Shown here piece after piece: positions 1,790 through 3,500 of a stretch of DNA of 64,000 nucleotides. Position 1 is the stretch's first letter, and every line of letters starts with the position of its first letter. The position numbers and the translations under genes are program-made. Origin of the DNA: Escherichia phage allfine. The notes under the pieces are model-generated. The model was not told the DNA's origin, did not search any database, and saw only the letters and a list, made by a program, of their open reading frames with translations. Location of the stretch: sequence record MN850633.1; one strand, 5' to 3'.

Positions 1790-2150
1790 CATCACTTAAG
1801 AGTCTTCTAAGAGGGTTTTTAAGTGATGTCCGGTAGGGCGAGGTCGGGTTTGGTATTGTCCGGTATGGTCGGGTAAAGTACAGTACGGCAAGGTAAAGTA
1901 GGGTATGGGTAGTTAATCGGAGCTACATTAAAATTCGATTGCATCACTTAAGAGCCTTTAAATTATACTCGATAGGTTATCTCATAGGGTTTTTAAGTAA
2001 TGTTTGGCAAGGCAAGGTGCAGCCCGGTCGGGTAAGGCGCGGTGAGGTATGGTAAAGTGTGGGTGGATGGTAGTAGCCACGTTAAAAATCTACCAAGTTT
2101 CTAAAGAGTCTTCTGTTGAGGGTTCTTTACAAACAACTTAACAATCAACT
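1790..2150 (+). repeat. structured non-coding element, copy 1: hairpin, GGT-periodic tract, conserved ~50 nt box, second hairpin, second GGT tract, hairpin TGGTAG/CTACCA
   Basis: 10 bp inverted repeat CATCACTTAA/TTAAGTGATG at 1790-1828; box 1904-1955 identical to 3313-3363 apart from one substitution; G/T-rich GGT-phased tracts; no ORF. Confidence 0.6.
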
Positions 2151-2170
2151 AAAGTGTGGAGCTAAATGCT

Positions 2171-2758
2171 ATGAAACTGTTAAATGTCAAAATCACTGGT
2201 ACTCGTCCTTTCTTGAGCCATAACGATACGCTGTCAGACCCATTAAACCCTCTGACAAAATATCACAAGTCTCTGTCCAGTAAACGTAAAAAGACTGACG
2301 AAGACTATGCGCTCTTAGCAGAAAGTCAACTGGTAACTTCTTGTTACTACGATGAGCAACTTGGTTTTGTTATGAACGGTGAGATGATTGAGGCTTGTAT
2401 CAAGTCTGGTGCAAAGCTCAACAAACTTGGTAAGGTAATTGACCGAGCCATTATGCTGACAGATGTAGTCTTCCCAATGACTATCAAGAACTGTCCAGCA
2501 AACCCACAAGAACTTGCTAAGAATCCAGATTTTATCTATGCTAAATCTGTTAAGATTGGTACAGCACGAGTTATGAGCTACCGTCCAATCTTCCGTGATT
2601 GGTCTGTAGAGTTTGGTTTGATGTTCGATGAAGAGCAAATTACCCGAGAGGAACTCCTGATGGTTCTGGAAAATGCTGGCAACCTTTGTGGTGTAGGTGA
2701 TTGGCGTCCACGCTTTGGTCGTTTTTCTGTAGAAGTTATTTCAGAAGGTAACGTTTAA
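2171..2758 (+). CDS. hypothetical protein
   Basis: Track ORF 2156-2758; start moved to ATG 2171 which follows GGAG at about 2158. Confidence 0.5.
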
Positions 2759-2760
2759 TT

Positions 2761-3201
2761 ATGAATACAAAAGCATTAGCAGCAAAGTTTAGTTACGGTG
2801 ATACTGTATCACATTCTGAGATGGACACCTTCTTAGGTATTGTGAAGCCAACTTATCAAGGTGACATTGTTAAGTACGAAGATGAAATGAAGGCTTATGC
2901 ACTTACACGTCTAAACCGACTTGAGAAGTTTATTGAAAAGCTTCTTAAAGAAGAGAAGATTTATCTGGTTGCTTCAATGGGTGTTGGTTATCGTGTGGTT
3001 GAACCTAAGCATCAAGCAACTATTGCAAAACGTAAAATGTCTGGTAAGATTGGTCGTGCTTTAAAGCAAGCCACTCAAGCGATTGAGAATGTGAACACTA
3101 TGGCACTTAGTCATCAAGAACGTTCACGACTGATTGAACAGCAAAACCATTTAGCTGCTATGAAAGCTAACATTAACAAGCAACGTAGAAAACCTTTCTA
3201 A
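2761..3201 (+). CDS. hypothetical protein (146 aa)
   Basis: ORF in track, tightly packed with upstream gene. Confidence 0.5.
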   Translation: MNTKALAAKFSYGDTVSHSEMDTFLGIVKPTYQGDIVKYEDEMKAYALTRLNRLEKFIEKLLKEEKIYLVASMGVGYRVVEPKHQATIAKRKMSGKIGRALKQATQAIENVNTMALSHQERSRLIEQQNHLAAMKANINKQRRKPF

Positions 3202-3210
3202 GTTGACTAG

Positions 3211-3236
3211 GAAGCCTCTTCGGAGGCTCCTTTTTA
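3211..3236 (+). terminator. intrinsic terminator
   Basis: Hairpin AGCCTC-TTCG-GAGGCT followed by TTTTT at 3231-3235. Confidence 0.55.
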
Positions 3237-3239
3237 AAA

Positions 3240-3500
3240 GGTCTTTAAACAGGGTCTTTTAATAAGGTAGGATAGGGTGGTGTATGGTTTGGTAAGGTTG
3301 TGTAAGGTAAGGTATGGGTAGTTAATCGGAGCTACATTAAAATTCGATTACATCACTTAAGAGTCTTCTAAGAGGATTTTTAAGTGATGCTCTGTCGGGT
3401 TTGGTCGGGTTTGGTAGGGTGTGGCTCGGTATGGTGTGGTTTGGTGTGGTAAGGTATGGAAGGATGGCAGTAGCCTTATAAAAAATCTGCCAAATAAGCT
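3240..3500 (+). repeat. structured non-coding element, copy 2 (paralog of 1790-2150)
   Basis: Same module order: GGT-periodic tract, conserved box 3313-3363, hairpin 3351-3389, GGT tract, hairpin TGGCAG/CTGCCA 3465-3492 with compensatory change relative to copy 1. Confidence 0.6.

Follow-up and report, generated by a model that had tools for sequence, protein, structure and literature searches.

The region at positions 1732-3538 of the 64,000-nucleotide stretch of Escherichia phage allfine analysed here (record MN850633.1; the whole stretch is called the window) is, with a probability of about 95%, a complete type II VIPR locus of the SUSP1 clade, comprising four guide RNAs (vrRNAs), the protein Vipr and the protein Vap1. 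VIPR, for Viral Interference Programmable Repeat, was described in two bioRxiv preprints of 2026 as consisting of Vipr, which is a minimal RAMP protein, of an accessory gene, vap, and of vrRNAs ~100 nt long, in which 9-16 YNNGG repeats are followed by a constant pseudoknotted tail (10.64898/2026.04.26.720920; 10.64898/2026.04.26.720927). The feature is real and, by analogy with the published model system in a sister phage, would be functional; it is hence already known. Two vrRNAs lie upstream and two downstream of the vipr-vap1 gene pair, all on the plus strand, and the elements follow one another on this strand in the order promoter, hairpin, vrRNA1, hairpin, vrRNA2, hairpin, vipr, vap1, terminator, hairpin, vrRNA3, hairpin, vrRNA4 and hairpin (Table 1). 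An original prediction for positions 1790-3500, made from sequence alone, had described the two intergenic regions as paralogous structured elements with GGT-periodic tracts. These elements are non-coding, as was claimed, and the protein gene between them, to which the prediction made no link, is the key to their function.

That gene, vipr, encodes a product of which 189 of the 195 residues (96.9%) are identical to PDB 36pp_D, the 'SUSP1 Vipr protein' (phmmer, E = 2e-127), and a profile of the Vipr family matches one solved structure, PDB 36pp (E = 8e-80). All of the 13 residues that were checked are kept (H17, K33, R39, E71, M72, K82, G87, K88, R138, C173, D177, W178 and R179); these have been named for binding of the GGY trinucleotide, the skipped base and the non-target strand (10.64898/2026.04.26.720927). 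The AlphaFold2 (AF2) model has a predicted local distance difference test (pLDDT) value of 95, and Foldseek matches it to Csm3, Cas7 and Cas6 with E ~5e-5. The product of the gene that follows shares 145 of 146 residues (99.3%) with the open reading frame (ORF) after vipr in locus L020, an IMG/VR contig whose Vipr equals the PDB SUSP1 sequence. We take L020 to be SUSP1, and on this sequence identity the ORF at 2761-3201 would be vap1, encoding the VIPR accessory protein. Neither Vipr nor Vap1 has a match in Pfam, PHROGs returns only families of 'unknown function' for them, and Vap1 has no relative in the PDB by sequence.

On both sides of this gene pair lie arrays of GGY-NN pentamers. The start-to-start spacings of GGT are almost all 5, 10 or 20, the rest being 3, 6, 7 and 11, and the off-register spacings are confined to array ends or to one register slip in array 3. 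The spacing of 5-8 nt proposed originally must therefore be replaced by strict pentanucleotide arrays. A density of at least 5/8 GGT at 5-nt spacing is reached at only these four places in 64 kb, and on the plus strand only. What had been taken for two paralogous elements is thus four arrays, each region consisting of two complete modules of hairpin, array and tail, and the module order that the two regions were said to share mixes parts of neighbouring modules. Unit statistics were compiled from 58 unique guides, which come from 22 related loci. At position 2, 100% of the units have G (a value partly due to how the parser was built); at position 3, T accounts for 90% and C for 10%, and a purine never occurs. 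Positions 4 and 5 have an entropy of 1.9 bits each, and position 1 is A or T in 17%.

All 18 close relatives of the locus of the 195-residue protein carry arrays, and the number of arrays per locus in relatives ranges from one to five. Phage contigs with a Vipr that is only 37-40% identical likewise have GGY-NN arrays on the gene strand beside the homolog, which argues for an old and conserved association of array and gene. At locus L028 the arrays occupy every intergenic space around the vipr homolog and the following gene of ~148 codons, shorter GGY tracts are found near the distant vipr homolog in L023 and L026/L027, and in L024/L025 (Vipr 39-40% identical) the units are mostly GGC-NN. The arrays at L025 3058-3350 and 3822-4000 and at L024 3060-3150 are broken by a conserved insert of ~40 nt, GGTTAGGCCATTGCGGGCGAATAGGTCGCTGTGGTCTTT, which is probably a different type of tail or spacer. 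At L023 3680-4500, 3' of the distant vipr-vap pair, copies of a hairpin module of ~50 nt (...GGTTCTCTGAACGAAGCCGCTTCG.AAGAGGCGGTTTCCTTGAG...) occur in alternation with short GGY tracts; neither hammerhead ribozymes nor any other Rfam family were found there at gathering score, and the other distant loci gave no hammerhead ribozymes at that score either. In the otherwise near-identical phage fjerdesal (L003 4926-4995), vrRNA4 has two more units, GGTTT GGTAG, which amount to exactly 10 nt, suggesting that guides change by insertion or deletion of whole units plus substitution in NN.

Each array ends in a tail of 35 nt that folds as an H-type pseudoknot. A set of 21 distinct tails, taken from the window, E. 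coli satellites and 21 related phage loci, gives a gapless alignment with the layout GG, helix 1a (4 nt), 2 nt, helix 2a (6 nt), AG, helix 1b (4 nt), an A-rich loop of 8 nt, helix 2b (6 nt) and 1 nt. Helix 1 occurs among them as GTAG/CTAC, GTGG/CCAC and AAGG/CCTT, and helix 2 as AATCGG/TCGATT, AGTCTC/GAGACT, GGTAG/CTACC, GGCAG/CTGCC and GTCG/CGAC. With the interleaved helices of 4 + 7 bp (11 pairs), 90.9% of the cells are paired vs 27-49% when the partners are slid, 9/11 pairs have changes on both sides, and the observed score was reached by none of 500 shuffles. The pseudoknotted tail was also inferred, and then seen by cryo-electron microscopy (cryo-EM), in the VIPR preprints (10.64898/2026.04.26.720920; 10.64898/2026.04.26.720927). 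The original prediction had recognised these parts correctly as a near-identical box (1904-1955 and 3313-3363, with the single difference G1941 vs A3350) and as terminal hairpins with the stems TGGTAG/CTACCA (2068-2073 with 2090-2095) and TGGCAG/CTGCCA (3465-3470 with 3487-3492), with one compensatory pair setting the two stems apart. Box and terminal hairpin are, however, homologous rather than separate modules, both being the 35-nt 3' tail in the gapless alignment. The proposal that selection acts on RNA structure is well founded, since the tail pseudoknot covaries abundantly and related tails compensate.

The mechanism was demonstrated for the near-identical SUSP1 system (10.64898/2026.04.26.720920; 10.64898/2026.04.26.720927), and by homology it would be as follows in the window. 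Each vrRNA, of ~85-115 nt, would consist of 10-16 GGY-NN pentamers and then the 35-nt pseudoknotted tail, and one Vipr protomer would bind per pentamer to build a helical filament that is right-handed. The two G's and the pyrimidine would be flipped into protein pockets, as was observed for the GGY of each unit in cryo-EM structures (10.64898/2026.04.26.720927), and the two variable bases would be left exposed. These exposed bases would pair with one strand of double-stranded DNA, each third target base being skipped (NNxNNx..., where x is usually the wobble position), and the resulting R-loop triplex would block transcription with no need for a protospacer adjacent motif (PAM). For SUSP1 the RNAs are discrete, of about 100 nt, and co-purify with Vipr; silencing was shown for SUSP1 and for Pseudomonas fulva, and a perturbed GGY abolishes it (preprint).

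The variable bases were compared with 14 E. coli satellite loci (309 kb) for each guide, with skip lengths of 0 to 3 applied to the first 11 loci. A satellite-phage island of ~12 kb in E. coli is clearly indicated as the target of guide 1 and, with less certainty, of guides 3 and 4. For vr1, 29/32 NN bases (91%) match L040 8998-9044 in the first gene of the island operon (null maximum, 23). This match keeps the reading frame, with the codon wobble position being the one skipped, and the NN bases of the imperfect vr1 units match the target too. For vr3, 18/20 NN bases (90%) match over the start of satellite gene 2 and its ribosome-binding site (L037 9554-9582; L033 12275-12247). The assignment of vr4 is tentative: 20/26 NN bases (77%), 17 of them in a row, match within a serine-recombinase gene of the satellite (L034 16176-16213), and here too the base passed over falls on the wobble position. 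With skips of 0, 2 or 3 nt the guides of the window gave nothing but noise. Over the whole clade, 39/58 guides reach an NN match of at least 80% with the 1-nt skip, vs 6-8/58 with other skips and 9/58 in shuffled satellites. No self-target was found in the masked 64-kb window, the best local scores of 10-12 comparing with a null range of 10-16. According to the preprints, the targets of the SUSP1 clade are mostly a satellite phage.

On the island are genes for a serine recombinase, a baseplate protein, a tape-measure protein and an HNH endonuclease as well as small ORFs, and 368 of 5,426 complete E. coli genomes contain a 0.9-kb marker region of it. We infer that the locus serves the phage for silencing an element that parasitises its infection. 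When the locus was compared by BLAST with complete E. coli genomes, 66 chromosomes were found with a vrRNA-like array that has its own promoter and terminator and no vipr, and the tails of these satellite arrays are of the vrRNA2 tail family, identical in one satellite locus. Such an orphan vrRNA, one per island and with a promoter of sigma-70 type and an intrinsic terminator, lies at L032 13881-14090 (chromosome of E. coli EC12), and others at L029-L031 and L033; the tail agrees with that of vrRNA2 at 34 or 35 of 35 bases in L031/L032, and the GTCG/CGAC variant of helix 2 is found in L029, L030 and L033. The orphan vrRNA of the satellite presumably borrows the Vipr of the helper phage, and satellite-encoded vrRNAs are mentioned in the preprint.

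Several observations weigh against the assignment of the region as a complete VIPR locus. The vr3 score of 18 is just one above the null maximum of 17, and the vr4 score of 20 equals its null maximum, with mismatches at the two 3'-most units; unwinding begins near the 3' pseudoknot (10.64898/2026.04.26.720927). For vr2 no target above chance was found in the 14 satellite loci scanned; a candidate in the host gene cmoB, with a best match of 18/24, lay inside the null and was rejected. The arrays of the window contain the non-GGY units TGTCC, AGTAC (twice), AGTAG, AGCCC and GATAG. In addition, vrRNA3 and vrRNA4 sit past the terminator with no promoter of their own recognised, and what is said of discrete vrRNAs, binding by Vipr and silencing is transferred from SUSP1 by analogy. 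The degenerate units (those listed other than GATAG), the missing target of guide 2 and the varying number of arrays per locus in relatives could all reflect partial decay of the locus, with some vrRNAs, above all vrRNA2 and perhaps vrRNA1, being no longer functional guides. We consider this improbable, though it is the alternative that deserves most attention. The best natural target belongs to vr1, the most degenerate of the guides; close homologs of vr1 in other phages (L009 and L015) keep the same imperfect units, which suggests tolerance; and with just 14 satellite loci scanned missing targets are expected, targets having been found for 20/41 guides in the preprint.

The position of the upstream copy between a strong promoter and vipr, and the fact that the arrays of the distant locus L028 stop 10-30 nt ahead of the next start codon, would also suit a cis-acting structured 5' leader, of riboswitch or attenuator type, that regulates the downstream genes. 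This is very unlikely, since the same modules follow the operon terminator (3266-3492), orphan units with their own promoter and terminator are present in E. coli satellites without vipr, the variable NN bases agree with foreign DNA if a specific skip rule is applied, and the SUSP1 RNAs are discrete and co-purify with Vipr. Rfam has no matching family either: only tRNAs pass the gathering score in the window, and at E up to 1 there is one chance-level match in 1700-3600. Of the two forms offered originally, a long leader or an independent small RNA, the second stands, in the form of four separate guide RNAs, and the first falls with the modules beyond the terminator.

G-quadruplexes, in DNA or RNA, acting by structure alone are a still weaker candidate and can be given hardly any credence. 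The G2N3 pattern is formally present in the arrays, as judged from sequence alone, (GGNNN)n formally permits two-tetrad quadruplexes, and it resembles the thrombin-binding aptamer. But the 17% of units with A or T at position 1 would break the G-runs, and a quadruplex does not need the pyrimidine that is always at position 3; nor would it account for the exact 5-nt register or for the co-variation of NN with satellite sequences. The G's are moreover placed in protein pockets by cryo-EM (10.64898/2026.04.26.720927). The G-rich tracts had been suggested as either quadruplexes or protein-binding sites, and it is the latter that agrees with the published structures. Double-stranded DNA iterons of a replication origin or partition site would suit the repeated, intergenic nature of the arrays and the public labels 'possible binding site of StbAB' and 'DR_4' on repeats in and beside them. 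They are just as far-fetched, because the 5-bp period would set successive sites on opposite helix faces, the arrays are strictly strand-specific with their 5-nt period, the genes tested at 1578-4473 contain no ParM, ParR, Par, Stb or Rep family at the Pfam curated cut-off, and the adjoining protein is an RNA-binding RAMP. A small helix-turn-helix regulator at 4174-4473 has a below-threshold match to HTH_ParB (20.4 bits vs the Pfam cut-off of 22.6).

An R-loop replication origin (a promoter followed by a G-rich non-template strand), opposite-strand rut sites, T7-like primase sites, Chi-like or RecA-preferred GT-rich recombination hotspots, ribosome standby sites and pairing with the CCA ends of tRNAs were all dropped once the Vipr match and the target code had explained the anatomy. 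Direct repeats (23-50 nt) with unique spacers, as in clustered regularly interspaced short palindromic repeats (CRISPR), are absent, the repeat search of 1600-3700 giving only vrRNA modules. No Cas family was found with Pfam in the seven neighbouring ORFs (471-1574, 1578-1724, 2171-4473), no systematic cas search of the 64 kb having been run, and no Cas genes are annotated around the homologous locus in wV8 and fjerdesal.

Every vrRNA of the VIPR locus is bracketed on both sides by a hairpin of 16-19 bp (z = -2.2 to -5.5). The 10-bp stem CATCACTTAA/TTAAGTGATG is present in both regions, at 1790-1828 and 3351-3389, as had been predicted (RNAfold about -22 kcal/mol, z = -5.3 to -5.5), and a third copy with a larger loop is found at 1942-2002. 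The hairpin pattern gives 10 matches vs 2.75 expected, a number reached in none of 100 shuffles. The hairpins fall into two main sequence families with the shared core GTCTTyTAAGAGGGTyTTTTAA, both of which keep a long helix, and the hairpin at 3492-3538 belongs to neither. The families are too conserved internally for covariation, and the support for the structure is the persistence of the long helix across both; the leader family of hairpin 4 also precedes many vrRNAs in relatives. The six bracketing hairpins may, as a tentative suggestion to which we give less than even odds, be maturation signals in type II arrays that are cut by a host double-strand-specific ribonuclease (RNase), most plausibly RNase III, so that each guide is freed from a longer transcript. 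In other VIPR types the vrRNAs are separated by hammerhead ribozymes (discovery preprint), of which maturation hairpins would by analogy be the functional counterpart. The base of the hairpin would set the 5' end of the guide, because the first matching NN of vr1 starts right there. The discovery of VIPR is already published, and the bracketing hairpins are a point not discussed in the searchable text of the preprint, where, for type II arrays, neither RNases nor leaders nor maturation are mentioned.

Upstream of the first hairpin the strong promoter of the original prediction was confirmed, its -10 hexamer ending ~30 nt before the hairpin. It would drive the upstream vrRNA pair and probably vipr-vap1 too. 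Promoter and first hairpin (the first ~105 nt of the query 1725-2170) are 91-99%, mostly 97-99%, identical in Felixounavirus records that match only that part.

Among known systems the closest is SUSP1 VIPR (PDB 36pp), which shares with the window locus not only the sequences of Vipr and, through L020, of vap1 but also the GGY-NN pentamer guides, the families of 35-nt pseudoknotted tails and of bracketing hairpins, the genomic position between a DNA ligase gene and genes upstream of frd and td, and the target class, an E. coli satellite island. It differs in having one vrRNA upstream and three downstream, instead of 2 + 2, and in its NN repertoire, and several units in the window have A or T at position 1. 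The type II VIPR of a Pseudomonas fulva prophage likewise has Vipr, vap1 and GGY-NN vrRNAs, the 1-nt skip code and the R-loop triplex (preprints), but is carried by a prophage of another genus and targets resident prophage regulators, not a satellite. With the Cas7/Csm3 filaments of class 1 CRISPR-Cas the locus has in common the RAMP fold, one protomer per fixed number of guide nucleotides, a thumb that periodically interrupts the guide-target duplex, and a variable guide part capped by a constant structured part. Unlike those systems, it has no repeat-spacer array in the locus or its flanks, its guide is non-contiguous, with 2/5 nt of the guide pairing to 2/3 of the target nt, the window Vipr is just 8-16% identical to Cas proteins, and the carrier is a virulent phage. 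We know of no acquisition machinery for VIPR.

The trp leader RNA of Bacillus, with 11 (G/U)AG triplets separated by 2-3 nt spacers and wrapped on the TRAP protein ring, is similar in that a protein oligomer recognises, in single-stranded RNA, a conserved trinucleotide recurring every ~5 nt and ignores the spacer bases. TRAP is, however, a closed 11-mer ring that works in cis as an attenuator, and its spacers are uninformative, whereas VIPR has an open, helical filament, uses the 'spacers' as guide and acts in trans on DNA; the TRAP and Vipr proteins are not homologous. VIPR has been proposed by its discoverers to predate CRISPR (preprints). The window offers a natural and complete example of VIPR with four guides in a common coliphage genus, in which DNA is read through a non-contiguous code, and it indicates that Felix O1-like phages, which find wide use in typing and biocontrol, are armed with programmable weapons directed at an E. 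coli satellite island.

Table 1. Features of the VIPR locus and its immediate neighbours in the window (position 1 is the first letter of the stretch; NN, variable bases of successive units)
Feature	Position	Strand	Details
ATP-dependent DNA ligase gene	471-1574		upstream neighbour of the locus
Promoter, sigma-70 type	1732-1759	+	TTGACA-16-TATACT; consensus scan, 11/12 matches
Hairpin 1	1789-1829	+	19 bp, directly 5' of vrRNA1; RNAfold -22.7 kcal/mol, z = -5.5, 0/200 shuffles as stable
vrRNA1 array	1827-1906	+	16 units, TGTCC then GGTAG ... GGTAT, strict 5-nt register; NN: CC AG GA CG TT AT CC AT CG AA AC AC AA AA AG AT
vrRNA1 tail	1907-1941	+	GTAG/CTAC and TAATCGG/TCGATTG
Hairpin 2	1941-2003	+	stem family of hairpin 1 with enlarged loop of ~30 nt, between vrRNA1 and vrRNA2; RNAfold -17.8 kcal/mol, z = -3.7
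vrRNA2 array	2001-2060	+	12 units; NN: TT AA AA GC CC CG AA GC GA AT AA GT
vrRNA2 tail	2061-2095	+	GTGG/CCAC and TGGTAG/CTACCA; first of the originally predicted terminal hairpins
Hairpin 3	2097-2134	+	16 bp, after vrRNA2 and upstream of vipr; RNAfold -13.6 kcal/mol, z = -3.3
vipr	2171-2758	+	195 aa, minimal Cas7-like RAMP
vap1 (by sequence identity)	2761-3201	+	starts 3 nt past the vipr stop codon; phrog_5926
Intrinsic terminator	3213-3236	+	after vap1; 6-bp GC-rich stem and T-run (terminator scan)
Hairpin 4	3229-3267	+	second sequence family, 4+12 bp, 5' of vrRNA3; RNAfold of 3205-3270
vrRNA3 array	3266-3315	+	10 units; NN: AG AG GG AT TT AA TG AA AA AT
vrRNA3 tail	3316-3350	+	differs from the vrRNA1 tail in the last base only (A3350 vs G1941); core of the originally predicted 50-nt box
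Hairpin 5	3351-3389	+	19 bp, separating vrRNA3 from vrRNA4; RNAfold -22.2 kcal/mol, z = -5.3
vrRNA4 array	3393-3457	+	13 units; NN: CG TT CG TT AG GT TC AT GT TT GT AA AT
vrRNA4 tail	3458-3492	+	AAGG/CCTT and TGGCAG/CTGCCA; second of the originally predicted terminal hairpins
Hairpin 6	3492-3538	+	18 bp then UUUUU, terminator-like inverted repeat; RNAfold -17.8 kcal/mol, z = -4.0
Promoter of next gene	3511-3539		overlaps hairpin 6 (promoter scan)

Over the ~2.2 kb that surround the locus, identity is 99.3% with Escherichia phage fjerdesal and 90-97% with some 250 further Felix O1-like phages (genus Felixounavirus). A hydrophobic ORF of 48 residues (1578-1724; phrog_22006, of unknown function) separates the ligase gene from the VIPR promoter, and the frd and td genes are found downstream of the vipr/vap1 gene pair. 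A cluster of 24 tRNA genes on the minus strand at 31008-35918 of the window is typical of Felixounavirus. The idea that the region is a physical genome end was rejected, as the UAB_Phi87 record opens in the tRNA region and has the locus at ~58 kb.

About 250 Felixounavirus records could be re-annotated, in which the locus now appears as 'DR_4', 'repeat_region', 'possible binding site of StbAB' or 'hypothetical'. The wV8 record (NC_012749, locus L001) has 'DR_4' repeats of 58 nt in the region, and that of KhF3 (KT184315, locus L002) an 11-bp 'direct repeat sequence4 possible binding site of StbAB'; both records predate VIPR and call vipr and vap1 'hypothetical protein'. This Felixounavirus locus is also present, with 95.8% identity, at 90607-92765 of GU169904, 'Staphylococcus phage SA1', and two 'Campylobacter' records match as well; these entries are probably mislabelled or mixed.

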